Source: a virus (lineage: Duplodnaviria > Heunggongvirae > Uroviricota > Caudoviricetes). From it: a DNA stretch of 30,282 nucleotides. Where the stretch lies: IMG/VR virus record IMGVR_UViG_2671181050_000003, one strand, 5' to 3'. Under the pieces are notes generated by a model. The model had not been told where the DNA came from. It saw nothing but the letters and a program-made list of their open reading frames with translations, and did no database searches. Positions 360 to 28,334 of this stretch are shown piece after piece. Within the stretch, counting starts at the first letter, position 1, and the number at the start of each line of letters is the position of its first letter. Both the position numbers and the translations under genes were made by a program.

Positions 360-2312
360 TTACGCTATCCGCTGGAAAAGAGTAATAAAGTTAAACATCG
401 AGTTCTTTCCTCCTTGCATTCCTTCTGGCATCAGATCAATATATGCGGCGGGTTTAAATGCCCGCCACACCCCCGGAATGTCCTCCTCCAGTTTCAAAAA
501 CCAGATTTGATTTGGTGTCGATGCGCCTGTTTGTGTTGTCTGTATTGAAATCAGATCAATGGAGCTACCCTGAATGTTTTCATATATCCCTGATGAAAAT
601 AAGCCTTCGCCGTCAGCATAGACAGAGGACACGCCAAAAACATAAGAACCAACCGCATATTTCCCGGTGGAAACATTGCCGTCCCTTCCGGCAACCCCCT
701 GTGGGCCTGCCGGGCCAGCTGGTCCCTGCGGACCTGCAGGTCCTGTATCACCTTTTTGACCCCGGGGTCCGGCTGGGCCTGCATCACCTTTGGGACCAGC
801 TGCACCAGCCGGTCCCCGTGGGCCTGCGGGCCCCACTGCTCCCGCAGGCCCACGGAGGCCCTGCTCACCTTTCGGACCTGTGGGACCTGCCGATCCTTGC
901 TCGCCCCTGTCACCTTTCGGTCCAGGTATGCTTTCTCCCGACGGGCGGGTTGTCGCAACCTCTTCTGCCTTCTGTTTCGCTGCCCTGGCCTCATCCATTG
1001 CCGCCTTCACAGCTTTCGGTGTGGCTGCCTTCGTTTCATCATCACTGTCCGTTGCGCTGCTTAACTGCACAATTCCCTTCTGTGCCGTCGTCGCATCTGC
1101 CACATTTGCTGCGCTGCCCGCCGGGCCTGGCTCCCCACGAGGTCCCTGAGGTCCAGCTTCGCCTCGTTCACCTTTCGGACCTGCCGGACCCGGTTCACCT
1201 CTCTCTCCGGCGGGGCCCTGTAATCCTTGCGGACCACGTTCCCCGGGTTCCCCTTTCGGCCCCGCAGGTCCGGTCTCACCGCGCTCTCCCTTTGCTCCTG
1301 CCGGCCCCGGCTCACCTCTCGGACCAGCATCCCCCTTTGGTCCCTGAGGCCCCCCCGGGTCTCCTTTTTCGCCTCTGGCCCCGGTTTCACCACGCGGCCC
1401 CATTGCTCCCTGTGGCCCGGTCGCACCACGTGGGCCAGATGGCCCTGTTGCGCCAGCTGGCCCCTGCACTCCCTGAGGTCCCCGTTCTCCTGTATCACCT
1501 TTCTGGCCCGGTATGCCCTGAGGTCCGCGCTCTCCCTGCTCACCTTTCTCCCCACGCGGACCCGCCGGACCTGTTTCACCACGAGGACCAGCATCACCTT
1601 TCGGCCCTGTATCGCCTTTAGGTCCTCGTGCATTCTCAGCCATACGTCTGGCTTCTTCAGCACTAACCGTAGCAGCCTCAGCACGTTTAAGAACGTCTCC
1701 GGCGGCTTCCTGAGCCACTCTGGCGGTTTCAGCATGTTGTCTGGCCTCTTTAGCGTCAGCTGCCGCTGCCTTTTCAGACTCACCTGCCCGGGTCGCCGCC
1801 TCTGCAGCCTCACTGGCTTTTTGTGCAGACTCCGTCGCTTTGCTTGTCGCAGCCTTCGCGCTTTCTGATGCAGTCTTCGCACTGGCAGCAGCGCTTTCCT
1901 TCGACTGTGAAGCCTGATTATTTTTCACCGCCGTGTCTTCGTTCAGACGACGAATCGTGGCAAGGTCATCCGCCACATTGTTCTGTATCTGCCGGAAATC
2001 TGTCAGCAGTTCTCCGGGTATGCTCACCTCAACAAGACTACGCCGTAACAGCATATTGAGCGTCACCGTACTTTCAGTCCCCTCAATACGCACACGTCCG
2101 TAGACAGCAGTCTTCCCTTTCACCGTCACAGAAACCGCATACTCCCCCGGCTCCAGCGTCATTCCGTAATATCCACCTTCACGGGTCACTGCTGACGCAC
2201 TGGTGCCGCTGAGCGCATCCGGTGAAACTGTCAGCGCCGTCAGGGTAATATTTGCGCCTGATATTGCCTCACCATCAGGAGATTTCAGCGTCCCCGAAAC
2301 AACAACACTCAC
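360..2312 (-). CDS. Tail fiber protein with collagen-like Gly-X-Y repeats (650 aa)
   Basis: Two long Gly-X-Y runs ([29 protein letters not shown]...) and an Ala/Lys/Ser/Glu-rich segment in the translation; start codon overlaps the upstream gene stop (ATGA); lies at the distal end of the structural module, followed by a Tfa-like gene. Confidence 0.8.
677..1628. repeat. Collagen-like Gly-X-Y coding repeats (two blocks) inside the tail fiber gene
   Basis: Periodic GC-rich triplet repeats; they generate the long spurious ORFs seen in other frames and on the opposite strand (458..1621, 1061..1882, 790..1149). Confidence 0.7.
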
Positions 2313-13843: not shown

Positions 13844-15817
13844 TTATGCTGCTACGGCATTCACACCAACAGTAAGACTTTCAATCAGCACAGGGTAAGT
13901 TGCCGCATTTCCGGTAATATCCGTAATTGCCAGCGCGTTGGCCTCAAAGGCTGCATTCGTCCATCTGGTCAGCGTAAACGGTTTTCCTGCTGCATTATCA
14001 AGCACCGGCGTGACGTTCAGCGAGCCACCACCCGGGAAGCGGAAAGTCAGCGTGTGCCAGTCGTGATCGAACGGACCATAACTACCAAGCCGCTGTGATG
14101 TGGTGTTTGCATGATACATCACATTGATGTTTGTTTTATCAGTCTGCAGATAGAAGGCCGCAATATAACCCTCCTCTGATTCCGCTCCCGGCCATCCACT
14201 ACCGCGCCAGTAAATACCCGCAGAATATTGATTTGCAGAAGCATTGAGAGATACATCATCGGGGATTTTAAAGCGCAGCGTGATTTCACCGCCGTTATCG
14301 AACAGCTCCTTCCCCTTACCGGCATCAATTGCGTGCGATACTTTCCAGGTCTTTTTCTGTGCAAGACCATTTTCTGGTTTTTCAAGACGAAGGGCTTTTT
14401 TACCTGAACCACTGTCACTGACCAGCGTGTTTTTGACATCTGTCAGCGTCCAGCCCTGCGAAGCCAGATCGGCATTTTCCGCATTCGCATCATAAGCCAG
14501 CACTGACTGTATCTTTGTCGGGACAACGGATTCAGGCTGAGTATCGCCACTCTCCTGTGCTGGTTGCGATACGCCTCCGCCTGAAGAAACCGCGGCTTTT
14601 GTCACTTTCCCGGAAACAAAATCTGCCACTCTGCCCACATGCAGAAGAATGGCTGTTGCCAGACGGTCGGAAATAATTCCGCGACGCGCCCATGAACCAA
14701 AGTGGGTTTTACGATCGGATGTTGTCCAGCTCTTCGCATCCGTTCGTCCACCGGAACCATAATACCCGATAGCCGGAATATCCGGGTCTTCTGACGGTTC
14801 ATTGGTCCCGACTTTCTGACCATTGTCATCCATCATAAACGGCACAAAGAAGATATTTTTACCGGCTTTGGTTTTGTATGCGCCATAGACGGCATCGTAT
14901 TGCGCTGAATACGTCTCCTTCCAGTAGTACGTCGTGTCACCACAAATCCAGGGCACCAGAGAAGGAGAAGCACCAGCGCACTGACCGGATACTCCCGCCA
15001 GGTCAGAACGGTATTTTTCCACCATGGCATCAAACATGGCGGGCTGACTGGCGTACGCTCCCTGTTTTAAATCAAACTCGCCCTGCATCCAGACAACACA
15101 AAGCAGTATGTTTTTGGGGTTTGCCTTCAGCGCGGCCTGAGTGCGTGTCAGCAGGTCTTTATACAACGGCTTATCAACGCCCCATCGTTCAGATTTATCC
15201 GACGCTCCTGAACTTTCACTGAACGTTCCGTCAGCACCGGCTGTAAACGCAGAGCCACCACGACAGCACGGCACTAACAAAATACCCGCATTTTCCGGCA
15301 TAAAGGGCAACAGCTTTTTGGCAATATGCAATCCCTGTCCGACACACCCATACTGCTCTGCGCTGGCTTTCGGATGAGAAAAACGGCTCAAATCCTGCAC
15401 ATCATGCAGGCAGTGGTCCGCCGGAATGATGTCGTTATATGCACAGGCCGCACCACCCGGTGTCACCGTACTGCGACGCGCCAGCTGTTTAATACGCGGG
15501 TCCGGACGGTCATATGTCTCCGGCAGCGGCAGACCTTCACCATACGCCATGCCGTTTGACTGTCCGGCCAGCGCAATGACAAAGTAATATTCTGGTTCAA
15601 CAACAACAGTCCGGGTACCATCTCCCCCCGGTGAAACTACCGGAGAGGTCATATCCCCTTCAGCGACTATAGCCTGGATAAATTCAGCACCATAACCCGC
15701 GTTTGAGATAATCGGACTACCATAGGGTTGCCAGCCTTCCTTCAGTTTTTGCGTCAGTTTTCCTGCGAGGTCTGACGGCGATGATGCCCTGACCACGTCA
15801 TAGTGTTTAAATGCCAT
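13844..15817 (-). CDS. nanS: Prophage sialate O-acetylesterase, NanS-p-like (SASA/SGNH hydrolase, about 658 aa)
   Basis: GQSN(G)M esterase motif (ALAGQSNGMAYG) and a DUF1737-like N-terminus (MAFKHYDVV...); start taken at the internal ATG with a GGGAGG ribosome-binding site; located between the late regulatory region and the holin, as in EHEC lambdoid prophages. Confidence 0.75.
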   Translation of the reverse strand: MAFKHYDVVRASSPSDLAGKLTQKLKEGWQPYGSPIISNAGYGAEFIQAIVAEGDMTSPVVSPGGDGTRTVVVEPEYYFVIALAGQSNGMAYGEGLPLPETYDRPDPRIKQLARRSTVTPGGAACAYNDIIPADHCLHDVQDLSRFSHPKASAEQYGCVGQGLHIAKKLLPFMPENAGILLVPCCRGGSAFTAGADGTFSESSGASDKSERWGVDKPLYKDLLTRTQAALKANPKNILLCVVWMQGEFDLKQGAYASQPAMFDAMVEKYRSDLAGVSGQCAGASPSLVPWICGDTTYYWKETYSAQYDAVYGAYKTKAGKNIFFVPFMMDDNGQKVGTNEPSEDPDIPAIGYYGSGGRTDAKSWTTSDRKTHFGSWARRGIISDRLATAILLHVGRVADFVSGKVTKAAVSSGGGVSQPAQESGDTQPESVVPTKIQSVLAYDANAENADLASQGWTLTDVKNTLVSDSGSGKKALRLEKPENGLAQKKTWKVSHAIDAGKGKELFDNGGEITLRFKIPDDVSLNASANQYSAGIYWRGSGWPGAESEEGYIAAFYLQTDKTNINVMYHANTTSQRLGSYGPFDHDWHTLTFRFPGGGSLNVTPVLDNAAGKPFTLTRWTNAAFEANALAITDITGNAATYPVLIESLTVGVNAVAA

Positions 15818-16018
15818 TATTCCTCCCGGCAGGGATAGTGTATGCAATCAAGATAAGGTGCGGGCTGACGTCAGTCATGGACAAGGGTTCAGAAACAGGA
15901 GGATGACTACAGCCCGCAATACGAAAAAGACCATACAGTTGCGCAGAGTGATTACTATCAGGTATTATTCGCCAGCTGAAAATTGATCACTTCACGTTTT
16001 GTTGTTTATTCCTTGCCA

Positions 16019-16047: not shown

Positions 16048-16054
16048 ATCCAAC

Positions 16055-16300
16055 AAGAAAGCCCCTCCGGAGAGGGGCTGGAGAGTAGCGCTATGTACCG
16101 TTCATGCATGGTGCAGGGTGCCTCCCGGTGAGTTCAGTATCAGCACCTGAACCCGCACCAGAAAGGATAAGGGGTGTGACCAAACACCTGTCGCTGATAT
16201 GCCCCTCCGCACAGGGGGATTCACCATGCCATATTTTTTTAACAAACTTCCCGCTGGCCAGACAATAATCGCCAGCCTGAATTGTGAGTAACGTGGCATT
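16055..16300 (-). repeat. Repeat unit A of an ORF-free tandem family, ending in a hairpin terminator (16061..16079)
   Basis: Shares conserved blocks with unit B (aaagcccctccggagaggggctg, catggtgc.agggtgcctcccggt, gggggattcacca, atttttaacaaa, gccagacaat, aattgtgag). Confidence 0.6.
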
Positions 16301-16324: not shown

Positions 16325-16534
16325 TAAAAAGGCCCGCCGGAGCGAGCCTGGAAGGATAGCGGTCATGTGATGCCGGTTTCCCGGTAACTCAGCATCGGTA
16401 TCTGAGTCAACGTTTTCTCTACTGGGTCATTTCCGATACGTTCCGCCTTCCGGCAGACTTTCATCACGTCAGAAAATATAGCACCCTGAGTAACAGGACA
16501 GTACTCAGAATTCAGGAAACTGTGACACATCCTG
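16325..16534 (-). repeat. Diverged middle unit of the same family, with its own hairpin terminator (16330..16349)
   Basis: Opens with aaaggcccgccggagcgagcctgg...tagcggtcatg, parallel to the start of units A and B. Confidence 0.4.
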
Positions 16535-16790
16535 CACAGAAAAGCCCCTCCGGAGAGGGGCTGAAGTATAGCCTAATTTCTGTCTGTCGCATGGTGCCAG
16601 GTGCCTCCCGGTAAATTCAGCCTGGCTACTGAATTTGCATGTTCGCTGGATCATACACTTTGCCAGATGCCCCGCCGCTGAGGGGGATTCACCACGCGAT
16701 GCAATTTTTAACAAATTCTCCGGCAGCCAGACAATCATCAAGCTGTGGAATTGTGAGGTATTTAAAAATTTCGCAGCCTCTTGCCACCCG
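16535..16790 (-). repeat. Repeat unit B, ending in a hairpin terminator (16544..16561 plus T-run)
   Basis: See unit A; perfect GCCCCTC/GAGGGGC stem followed by TTTTCTGTG on the minus strand. Confidence 0.6.
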
Positions 16791-16876: not shown

Positions 16877-16948
16877 TTGTGGCGGCCGGAATCGAACCAG
16901 CTCCCATCGGTGCGCTGCCGATTACAATACGCGCGGCGATCCGCTACA
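16877..16948 (-). pseudogene. tRNA-like element: canonical T-arm and acceptor stem, anticodon-like hairpin, non-canonical D-arm
   Basis: Minus strand reads tgtagcg...atcgg-cagcgca-ccgat-ggga-gctgg-ttcgatt-ccggc-cgccaca-a. The GGTTCGATTCC T-loop is exact and the acceptor pairs 6 of 7, but the D-arm does not fold, position 33 is not U and no CCA is encoded. Confidence 0.35.
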
Positions 16949-17080
16949 TGACTAGTATTTTCACAGTCGCCTGTCTGCTAGCTCGCCATTGAGCTTCACC
17001 ACAACGATAAGAGCACTGCGCACACCTTTCACCAATTCCACGAGGTCTGCGGGTTCAATGCTCTTACCTGTTGTGCAAAC

Positions 17081-17107
17081 AAAAAGCCCCGACATTTCTG
17101 CCGAGGC
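17081..17107 (-). terminator. Candidate tR'-like terminator about 100 nt downstream of the putative late promoter
   Basis: GCCTCG/CGGGGC stem (one G-U pair) followed by TTTTTGTTT on the minus strand. Confidence 0.35.
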
Positions 17108-17214
17108 CTTTACCTAATCTAGCCAGTATGCCGATCCTAAATATTATCGACGACCGAGGTAAATCAGGATTTCTCTTTCGCTTCTCAGTGCGCTTTTGCT
17201 CCGAGCATACACAA

Positions 17215-17267: not shown

Positions 17268-17894
17268 TCATCCAGCAATCACTAGAAGTTCTTTCTCCAA
17301 TTCTCGCTTCATTGCATAAAACATTTCTGAATCAAGGACCCTCTCGCACCACACGACCCGCCTCCGGCAATACTGAATATCAACTCCTGTTATCTGAGAA
17401 ATCATCCTGGCGATATCTTGCGTGCTGTCGCGATTGCAATATCGCCTAATAGCTACATCACGGACAGGGCTTTCACGATGAAAGGTCTCAACCATCACAC
17501 GTTCAACGAAAGCAGCATCATCGGATTCTTTGGCGAGAGCAATGATATTACCTGCCGATGACTGAGGGATGACCAGTTCTCGGGCTTTCTGATGGAGTTC
17601 ATCTCCACGTAGTCCGTCTTCTTCATACAGACGCATGACAACAGACTCAATCTGCTTAGCTTTGTCATCGCTCCACTGACTGCGAATCATCAGTCGCCCA
17701 ATAACGTTAATTGCACCACAAGGAGAATCATCACCAGCGTTAACATTTCCCCATACCTGTAGCATGTAGTGAACCCATGCTTTCTGACGAGAGTTAATGA
17801 TTTTCTTCGGATGCCTCCATATGCGGCGGAAATGAGCATCATTAATAAAGTTAACCATGCCGAATACTGGGGTTAGCCGCATCACAGCCCCCAT
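17268..17894 (-). CDS. Putative late antiterminator Q (208 aa), assigned by position
   Basis: Last gene of the nin region, immediately upstream of the candidate pR'/tR' and the late genes; four Cys residues; family not recognised from sequence. Confidence 0.4.
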   Translation of the reverse strand: MGAVMRLTPVFGMVNFINDAHFRRIWRHPKKIINSRQKAWVHYMLQVWGNVNAGDDSPCGAINVIGRLMIRSQWSDDKAKQIESVVMRLYEEDGLRGDELHQKARELVIPQSSAGNIIALAKESDDAAFVERVMVETFHRESPVRDVAIRRYCNRDSTQDIARMISQITGVDIQYCRRRVVWCERVLDSEMFYAMKRELEKELLVIAG

Positions 17895-20341: not shown

Positions 20342-20609
20342 GACAACGCCCTCTGGTTGATGAATTTAACTATCACCACCGTCAGGTGCAAATCTTTGGG
20401 TGGTGAGACGTACAGGGTTTGCACTACCGGATCAACCAACCGGCGAGCCTTTCGGCTCCCCCATACGCCCCACCATAATTCAGATGTGCGTGTGCTTACG
20501 ACAACAAAAAACACGCTCGCGGCGTGTGTCTGTCGCGGTTGAATATCCGGGGTGCAAATCCCGACGCCAGATTTTGCTGGCGTGCGAAGAATATAATCCC
20601 GGATATGTG

Positions 20610-28276: not shown

Positions 28277-28334
28277 TTTCTGGTGACATTTGGCGGTATC
28301 AGTTTTACTCCGTGACTGCTCTGCCGCCCTTTTT
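28277..28334 (+). ncRNA. dicF: DicF-like small RNA
   Basis: tttctggtgacatttggcggtatcagttttactccgtgactgctctgccgcccttttt matches the E. coli DicF sequence as I recall it with about one substitution; followed by dicB-like and ydfD-like genes as in Qin. Confidence 0.65.

Follow-up and report, generated by a model that had tools for sequence, protein, structure and literature searches.

A viral DNA of 30,282 nucleotides (IMG/VR record IMGVR_UViG_2671181050_000003, class Caudoviricetes; this whole stretch is called the window and all positions are numbered in it) carries on its minus strand a tRNA-like element (TLE) of 127 nt, which runs from the 5' end of an acceptor stem at position 17003 to a discriminator A at 16877 and is read throughout on that strand. 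The TLE is almost certainly a functional structured RNA, as it combines the four arms of a tRNA with a fifth arm of 55 nt and keeps this architecture through compensatory base changes in relatives carried by unrelated phages. In all likelihood it does not decode. The best explanation overall is that of a functional, non-decoding tRNA-like phage RNA gene whose product is excised, dimeric and acts in trans, a combined reading to which we would give an even chance of being right.

Results

The boundaries of the TLE follow from alignment to the Rfam tRNA model and from a covariance model (CM R1) on which the window copy scores 137.5 bits, and in Skate-like phages homology stops exactly at 16877, the 3' end of the element. 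The Rfam tRNA model aligns from 17003 to 16877 with 26.5 bits (E 0.0045), which is sub-threshold against a gathering score of 29. The acceptor stem pairs UGUGGUG (16997-17003) with CGCCACA (16878-16884) in seven base pairs, six Watson-Crick and one G.U, and is supported by the sequence, the Rfam alignment, RNAalifold and compensatory changes at 1:72, 3:70, 5:68 and 6:67. The dinucleotide AA separates its 5' strand from a D-arm, GCUC-AAUGGC-GAGC (16981-16994), which has the invariant GG in its loop and is placed by the Rfam alignment and the alignments of relatives alike. The cloverleaf is completed by an anticodon-like arm, AUCGG-CAGCGCA-CCGAU (16906-16922, from sequence and alignment), with A33, an 'anticodon' GCG and C37, and by a T-arm, GCUGG-UUCGAUU-CCGGC (16885-16901), which has one G.U pair and compensatory changes at two stem pairs in addition to its match in the Rfam alignment. 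All four tRNA arms are present at standard dimensions, with covariation in each except the D stem, which is invariant. No CCA is encoded after the discriminator.

An earlier sequence-only reading had placed a tRNA-like element at 16877-16948. Its 3' end, its T-arm with an exact T-loop and a 5-bp stem, its 5-bp stem AUCGG/CCGAU around the 7-nt loop CAGCGCA, the lack of U at position 33 and the lack of an encoded CCA are all seen in the sequence. Its 5' boundary lay 55 nt too far in, and the interval corresponds to the 3' two-thirds of the TLE. The acceptor 5' strand that it proposed, TGTAGCG (16948-16942), falls within another hairpin, in a stretch not conserved in relatives, and is a chance complement; the D-arm that it described as degenerate and unable to fold is the canonical arm at 16994-16981, overlooked because of the wrong 5' boundary.

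The fifth arm (16924-16978) is located between the D-stem and the anticodon-like stem, and the spacing from D-arm to variable loop is 74 nt as against 18 nt in tRNA in the Rfam alignment. The RNAalifold consensus recovers it, with compensatory changes in all three of its helix segments. At its base is a helix of 4 bp (GCAG/UUGU); an internal loop (ACA / GCGCGUA) separates this from a long hairpin, GGCGACUGU...GCGGAUCGCC, of about 10 bp, which is capped by an apical loop of 18 nt. Across copies the whole element measures 126-128 nt, compared with about 73-93 nt for a four-arm cloverleaf. The 3' side of the internal loop, GCGCGUA (16928-16934), is single-stranded and nearly invariant in the alignments, and may contact the CGC of the 7-nt loop in a pseudoknot; the loop CGC and the junction GCG are both invariant, and their few variants do not covary.

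ARAGORN called no gene and no tmRNA in the window, and called none in the intact, isolated 127 nt in its default, relaxed and pseudogene modes. In silico removal of the fifth arm and its adjacent linker base (57 nt, 16979-16923) yields a default ARAGORN call of tRNA-Arg(gcg). The failure of the tRNA finders is thus due to the 55-nt arm and not to decay, and the same cause underlies the silence of ARAGORN and the low Rfam score, which taken formally go halfway towards refuting the tRNA-like character first proposed. In intron mode ARAGORN reported a 'tRNA-Thr' whose anticodon stem would be interrupted by a 45-nt intron, a call that we rejected as implausible. Single-sequence minimum free energy (MFE) folds of the 127 nt (z = -0.95) and of the earlier 72-nt interval (z = +0.8) also lacked the cloverleaf, so that for the 127 nt alone the cloverleaf is recovered by comparative analysis and not by single-sequence folding.

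Copies of the 127-nt unit with about 90-94% identity are found in lambdoid phages, HK75 among them, in P22-like Escherichia coli podophages and in the unrelated Salmonella siphophages Skate, seszw and Akira. The copy in PhiR5_2 is 100% identical to that of the window. Pattern scans of IMG/VR found 83 loci and then at least 120 loci with the element. A metagenome scan gave 63 contigs and added variants, all within the known loop hexamer types (described below) and within an enterobacterial, gut or food setting, and a genome contig scan (four species representatives) showed that Klebsiella, Enterobacter and Superficieibacter genomes carry it as well. One of the four representatives, a metagenome-assembled genome labelled 'Cellvibrionaceae' (JAUVQU010000080.1, locus L144), holds an E. 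coli-type copy with lambda-like flanks, on what is probably a mis-binned enterobacterial phage contig. Seventy-eight distinct sequence variants keep identical architecture across unrelated contexts, and identity between copies in the extra arm goes down to about 70%. Family members score 128-153 bits with the covariance model, which was built from relatives, and ordinary tRNAs score at most 29 bits (ileZ, 29); the match of the window copy, the only one in the window, is far above chance.

Given 24 diverse copies and no guide structure, RNAalifold returned the five-arm cloverleaf with compensatory changes in 13 of the 32 pairs. In a set of 65 distinct copies, pairing is kept in 96.7% of pair cells, changes on both sides are seen in 16 of the 32 pairs, and compensatory changes are found in every helix except the D stem; for instance, the middle pair of the anticodon-like arm changes from C-G to U-A or A-U, and L150-type copies also show G-C to A-U. 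In this set none of 500 shuffles matched any of five covariation measures, and when the 3' partners were slid as a control, pairing was 27-46% and the double-change pairs numbered at most four. A CM-derived alignment leans toward the structure of its model, but the RNAalifold result, which is independent of that model, and the slid controls argue for a real signal. Purifying selection on the structure is strong. There are 155 G.U cells as against 22 A.C cells, and copies differ by 1-nt indels; both show a constraint on the RNA of the minus strand, as opposed to one on a protein reading frame or DNA site.

These data bear on the proposal that the TLE arose by decay of a tRNA gene into a pseudogene, or was left behind by recombination or integration, as the sequence-only reading had suggested when it spoke of a decayed or non-canonical tRNA relative and of a remnant of recombination at a tRNA gene. 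The element fails tRNA finders, departs from tRNA at core positions and lies in a recombination-prone mosaic region whose inserts differ from phage to phage while the flanks stay the same, all of which would suit such an origin. It is, however, tRNA-related and non-canonical without being decayed, since compensatory changes occur in all helices but the D stem and nearly all pair cells remain paired. The full 127-nt unit is intact, with identical architecture, in the 78 variants and their unrelated contexts; the divergence of the extra arm shows that the alignment is not a single recent clone; the element is a copy of no host or 933W tRNA; and no integrase or att site was found beside it in the window. 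The pseudogene is effectively refuted by the covariation, and we leave it only a very small residual probability.

The apical loop of the extra arm contains a hexamer, ACUAGU in the window (16951-16956), which we propose as a kissing-loop dimerisation site. This hexamer is self-complementary in all 157 copies, among which six variants occur: ACUAGU (87 copies), UCUAGA (23), UCUGGA (22), UCGCGA (19), UCCGGA (4) and ACCGGU (2). Several of the changes are double substitutions inside clades, such as UA to CG at the centre, and UCUGGA is self-complementary solely via two G.U pairs, which places the constraint at the level of RNA. Directed scans of IMG/VR found no violation of the outer pair, and where copies with a third base other than U or a fourth other than A were sought, all those retrieved had complementary or wobble combinations. 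The predicted energies of the hexamer duplexes range from -3.6 to -8.7 kcal/mol. As a hexamer cannot pair with itself within one hairpin loop, a loop-loop (kissing) homodimer is the simplest reading, and hexamer covariation makes a dimeric RNA probable, if far from assured. The HIV-1 dimerisation initiation site and phi29 pRNA likewise have a 6-nt self-complementary sequence in a purine-flanked loop, with changes between lineages that keep the self-complementarity; the TLE differs from them in the size of the loop (18 nt versus 9 nt), in its tRNA-like context and in that its dimer is predicted.

Read as DNA, five of the six hexamers are palindromes (SpeI, XbaI, NruI, BspEI and AgeI sites), as would be expected of a palindromic protein-binding or restriction-type site in DNA, and some GenBank and RefSeq records place open reading frames (ORFs) named 'hypothetical protein' or 'polyubiquitin-A' over the element, as would be expected if it were part of a small coding gene on the opposite strand. 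Against both stand the excess of G.U over A.C cells, which puts the constraint on the minus-strand RNA, and the 22 UCUGGA copies, whose self-complementarity exists through G.U alone; in addition, close relatives differ by 1-nt indels, which no reading frame would survive. A DNA-level or coding explanation is effectively excluded, with a probability that we regard as negligible.

A8, A33 and C37 are fixed across copies, where tRNAs have U8, U33 and a purine at 37; C35, G36 and A38 are likewise invariant in the alignment, and the GG of the D-loop and the UUCGAUU of the T-loop are retained as in tRNA. The last base of the D-loop is C, and hence there is no A20, the major determinant for arginyl-tRNA synthetase in E. 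coli. The discriminator varies among copies between A, C and U. Loop positions 34-36 read GCG or UCG, both Arg anticodons, and in the anticodon arm 12 of 17 positions are the same as in E. coli tRNA-Arg(ACG) (argQ), a hint that the element derives from a tRNA-Arg. The best identity to any tRNA compared, 46/71 to E. coli argQ, is at background level, and no specific relative was found among the 933W ileZ/argN/argO genes, the tRNAs of the element loci and E. coli argQ. The kinship with ileZ/argN/argO suggested by the sequence-only reading is not borne out, as alignment to the 933W genes shares universal tRNA positions only.

We have considered whether the TLE could be a genuine aminoacylatable tRNA, probably a tRNA-Arg with an odd arm, that supplements decoding in the manner of ileZ/argN/argO. 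The tRNA-Arg(gcg) call obtained after arm removal, the two Arg anticodons, the partial match to the anticodon arm of tRNA-Arg(ACG) and the occurrence in the phage tRNA slot and in tRNA arrays (see below) favour this. The fixed A33 in place of a near-universal U33, C37 in place of a purine, A8 in place of U8, the missing A20 and CCA and the variable discriminator oppose it, as do the sub-threshold Rfam score and the silence of ARAGORN on the intact element, and a 127-nt RNA with an arm at the hinge would clash with the usual L-shape. A decoding tRNA is therefore decidedly unlikely.

In the window, the TLE is part of what appears to be a late leader. The minus-strand order is a Q-like late antiterminator gene (17268-17894; phrog_753, E 3.5e-68), a terminator-like hairpin with a U-run of the tR' type (17077-17109, from sequence and MFE fold), a long hairpin called H0, the element, two STnc100 RNAs and a NanS-p-like esterase gene. 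The element lies about 75 nt beyond the terminator-like hairpin, and in HK75 pR' and Tr' are annotated at the equivalent place. The element lies in the slot between Q/PR' and the lysis genes in which lambdoid prophages keep tRNA genes; the sequence-only reading had pointed to such a slot between Q and the late genes, and the upstream Q-like ORF is confirmed. In Stx phages (933W) the same slot holds ileZ-argN-argO, and P22-like phages place tRNA genes in the late-leader slot, where the late operon starts (PMC8022706).

H0 (17000-17075, minus strand, from the MFE fold) has the arms CACAACAGGUAAGAGCAUUG (17075-17056) and CAGUGCUCUUAUCGUUGUG (17018-17000), the second (3') of which shares 4 nt with the beginning of the acceptor strand and would thus compete with formation of the acceptor stem. 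Its 5' arm is found upstream of the element or of an alternative body in 78 loci, including the lambda 44790-44870 region (L164), Sasha (L148), KlebP_265 (L147) and the Skate-like L001; the arms ACAACAGGUAAGAGCA / UGCUCUUWYCGUUGU are conserved 5' of the element or its replacement. A boxA-like sequence, UGCUCUUA, lies in the 3' arm at 17015-17008 and equals the rrn/lambda boxA core; we rejected it as a Nus site, as it is buried in the H0 helix and is missing in N-leader-type and L089-type copies.

Several other features of the window were recorded. Two tandem STnc100 prophage small RNAs lie directly 3' of the element in the same late leader (16534-16727 and 16049-16258, minus strand), with scores of 138.7 and 129.9 bits. 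They are followed by a 667-aa ORF (13844-15847, minus strand) with DUF1737, a SASA esterase domain and DUF6645, that is, a sialate O-acetylesterase of the NanS-p type. An esterase of this type follows stx in Stx phages, and the prophage of the window has the late-region layout of a Stx phage, without stx or tRNAs. As to further known regulatory RNAs of prophages elsewhere in the window, a C4 antisense RNA and an isrK Hfq-binding RNA are adjacent to each other (20396-20480 and 20506-20583, minus strand), and a DicF RNA is present at 28278-28329 on the plus strand.

In other phages the genomic settings are diverse. In L150-type phages a tRNA-Arg(UCU) follows 8 nt after the element and is itself followed by a tRNA-Met/Ile(CAU), and in Akira (L057) a tRNA lies about 100 nt downstream. 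Adjoining tRNA genes (Arg-UCU, Met/Ile-CAU, Ser-GCU) were recorded at 795-951 (minus) in L150, 12372-12448 (plus) in L057 and 1773-2023 (plus) in L147; in the last, KlebP_265, the tRNAs adjoin the same scaffold of H0 and closing stem, which there lacks the element. In a Skate-like phage the element is antisense to the flanking structural genes and stands behind a promoter, TTGACA-17-TAGATT. In the L089/L146 group a strong intrinsic terminator begins 11 nt after the element, with another before it. In 35 of 111 distinct contexts the element is 20-30 nt upstream of a gene for an N-like antiterminator (phrog_271).

The last of these settings is best illustrated by L087, which is identical to lambda in PL, in boxA and boxB of nutL, in a small hairpin, in the lower stem GCUUUGGGGUGUG / CACACCACCAAAGC and in the ribosome-binding site (RBS) of N, and whose N is that of lambda. 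The element here takes the place of the apical body of about 105 nt that lambda carries on the same long stem. An unconstrained MFE fold of the L087 leader shows boxB, the long stem and on top of it the complete five-arm cloverleaf (z = -4.8), and lambda forms the same long stem but carries another top. Published work describes a high degree of structure in the lambda N-leader and a part for it in the autoregulation of N (PMC5725501). Just outside the acceptor stem, the -1:73 pair covaries, being G-C in some copies and A-U in others. We considered a HisRS-type G-1:C73 identity and rejected it, because it is seen in some N-leader copies only; elsewhere the pair is A:U or U:A, in keeping with an extension of the helix.

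A similar exchange is evident in late leaders. H0, a closing stem of 7 bp and the trailer CACAAYCCAAAC are common to those of lambda, HK629 and Sasha, in which the bodies differ; the closing stem is UGUGCUG/CAGCACA in lambda and UGUGGUG/CGCCACA in the window. Shared stems with different bodies indicate that the TLE is one of several exchangeable cassettes on conserved leader stems. The bodies of lambda (L163/L164), which are unrelated or possibly degenerate, suggest either cassette exchange or deletion of a former tRNA-like element. As a side observation, the short strings ACAGGCG..UCAU..CGCCGC are common to the extra arm and the body in the lambda late leader. Another tRNA-like cassette, of 71 nt, occurs in L121 (8704-8774, plus strand) on a stem of the N-leader type, about 150 nt upstream of the 127-nt element; it has the acceptor GGUGUGG/CCACACC followed by an in-register ACCA, a perfect T-arm and poor D and anticodon arms, and ARAGORN calls it tRNA-Ser(tga).

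This arrangement raises the main alternative to a trans-acting RNA, namely a cis-acting module for processing or folding ('tRNA punctuation'), in which the fold of the element would nucleate the leader stem and attract RNase P or RNase III, so that the 5' leader (nutL with N-Nus, or PR'/tR') is severed from the mRNA and the excised RNA has no function. The stem of the lambda N-leader is reportedly an RNase III site. In favour of such a module, the element tops the lambda-type N-leader stem immediately upstream of the RBS of N and also occurs in the late leader; the N-leader structure is tied to N autoregulation (PMC5725501); unrelated bodies occupy the same stems in other phages; L121 has a second, different tRNA-like cassette on the same kind of stem; and the upstream sequence always offers an alternative partner to the acceptor 5' strand. 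Left unexplained by it are the near-invariant loops CAGCGCA and GCGCGUA, the conserved self-complementary hexamer and the copies that are antisense with their own promoter, bracketed by terminators or set in tRNA arrays. We regard a purely cis role as doubtful, yet serious enough to be kept in view.

Discussion

The results of this work allow us to place the TLE as a probable new family of enterobacterial-phage RNA genes, which is no member of the known classes of tRNA mimics. With canonical tRNA (RF00005, especially tRNA-Arg) it shares the 7-bp acceptor stem, the GG of the D-arm, the UUCGAUU T-arm and the anticodon-type arm of a 5-bp stem and a 7-nt loop, and with canonical tRNA genes it shares the placement in tRNA arrays, before terminators and in the tRNA slot of late leaders; it differs from canonical tRNA in its 55-nt fifth arm, A8, A33, C37 and variable discriminator, and in lacking A20 and CCA. 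Like ileZ-argN-argO of 933W and the late tRNAs of P22-like phages, it lies after Q/PR'/tR' and before the lysis genes or NanS-p esterase, and in relatives the same kinds of tRNA, Arg(UCU) and Met/Ile(CAU), directly follow it; in contrast to ileZ-argN-argO, it has no sequence relationship to these genes beyond universal tRNA positions and is very probably non-decoding. N-leader copies such as L087 have the nutL, lower stem and N RBS of the large lambda N-leader stem, whereas the window copy stands in the late leader, on the lambda late-leader scaffold, and cleavage by RNase III is predicted.

Among non-decoding RNAs, YrlA, transfer-messenger RNA (tmRNA) and mascRNA/MALAT1 reuse the 'top half' of tRNA (acceptor, T and D parts) to engage enzymes that recognise tRNA, and the TLE resembles them in this respect. 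The enzymes engaged by tRNA mimics include RNase P, the CCA-adding enzyme and modification enzymes. Unlike the TLE, which is unpermuted and ends at its acceptor stem, YrlA is circularly permuted, ends in a Ro-binding stem and is linked to rsr; tmRNA differs in having a messenger domain and a G3.U70 pair, and mascRNA in having neither an extra arm nor a dimerisation loop.

The family has largely escaped annotation. Rfam 15 matched no family other than tRNA to the element, even at E values up to 10, and no Rfam family reaches threshold at seven other element loci. Of 5426 complete E. coli genomes, 163 carry the element, and in none of these does RefSeq annotate it. Public annotations over the element consist of a 58-nt 'tRNA-Ser' fragment, 'polyubiquitin-A' or antisense 'hypothetical protein' ORFs, and otherwise there are none; the records concerned are PQ186186.1 (21833-21890), ON470589/ON470594, PV340546 (19872-20204) and several RefSeq E. 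coli records, and these ORF and 'tRNA-Ser' annotations are probably artefacts. We found no published description of the element; a catalogue of about 10,000 candidate viral RNAs (PMC10690425) may contain it.

We propose the following series of steps for the action of the TLE. The RNA keeps the top half of a tRNA, with the 7-bp acceptor stem stacked on the T-arm and an elbow formed by the D- and T-loops, together with a tRNA-Arg-like anticodon arm, and the 55-nt fifth arm would sit at the hinge where D-stem and anticodon stem meet. The window copy would be transcribed within the Q-antiterminated late leader, just past tR'. Excision would proceed as for a tRNA, with RNase P acting at the 5' end (U1) and trimming at the 3' end, and RNase III would make the cut in settings such as the lambda-type N-leader, where the acceptor helix is prolonged by pairing of leader with trailer. 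That the RNA is excised from phage transcripts is, on these grounds, fairly probable. The released RNA of about 127 nt would be unable to read codons, given A33, C37, A8, the variable discriminator and the lack of A20 and CCA, and would pair with a second copy through the hexamer of its extra arm, as hexamer covariation suggests. The dimer would then mimic tRNA in trans and bind or titrate a host factor that recognises tRNA. This last step is speculative, and a trans-acting decoy is for us a possible but less than probable outcome.

Phage tRNAs counter defence systems that cleave tRNA, and a non-decoding look-alike is accordingly an obvious candidate for an anti-defence or host-takeover RNA. 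In its fullest form, the proposal is that of an undescribed class of RNA, a five-armed kissing-loop homodimer carried as cargo on leader stems processed by RNase III and RNase P or in tRNA arrays, and acting as a decoy or inhibitor in trans. We put this forward tentatively and consider it rather doubtful as a whole; equally tentative are the targets that it would suggest, either an anticodon-loop nuclease of anti-phage defence or a tRNA-Arg-specific enzyme.

Several observations weigh against the reading of the TLE as a non-decoding, dimeric RNA acting in trans. The family is narrow, being drawn from phages of Enterobacteriaceae and at least 90% identical in large parts, which limits the power of the comparison and may inflate the shuffle statistics. 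Variation in the hexamer mostly tracks a few clades, and independent events appear few, with about three or four within-clade changes. The loop variants GCG and UCG, as Arg anticodons, are what might be expected of a decoding tRNA. Lambda, HK629, Sasha and KlebP_265 carry unrelated bodies on the same closing stem, so that the slot may need just some folded RNA, which favours a role in cis. Finally, no gene for a partner protein co-occurs with the element.

If the proposed reading is true, an RNA gene missed by tRNA finders and by Rfam lies unannotated in many phages and prophages of enterobacteria. The TLE would then represent a new architecture among tRNA mimics, five-armed and probably dimeric, and the N-leader stem and the late leader of lambda would look like exchangeable launch pads for cargo RNAs.

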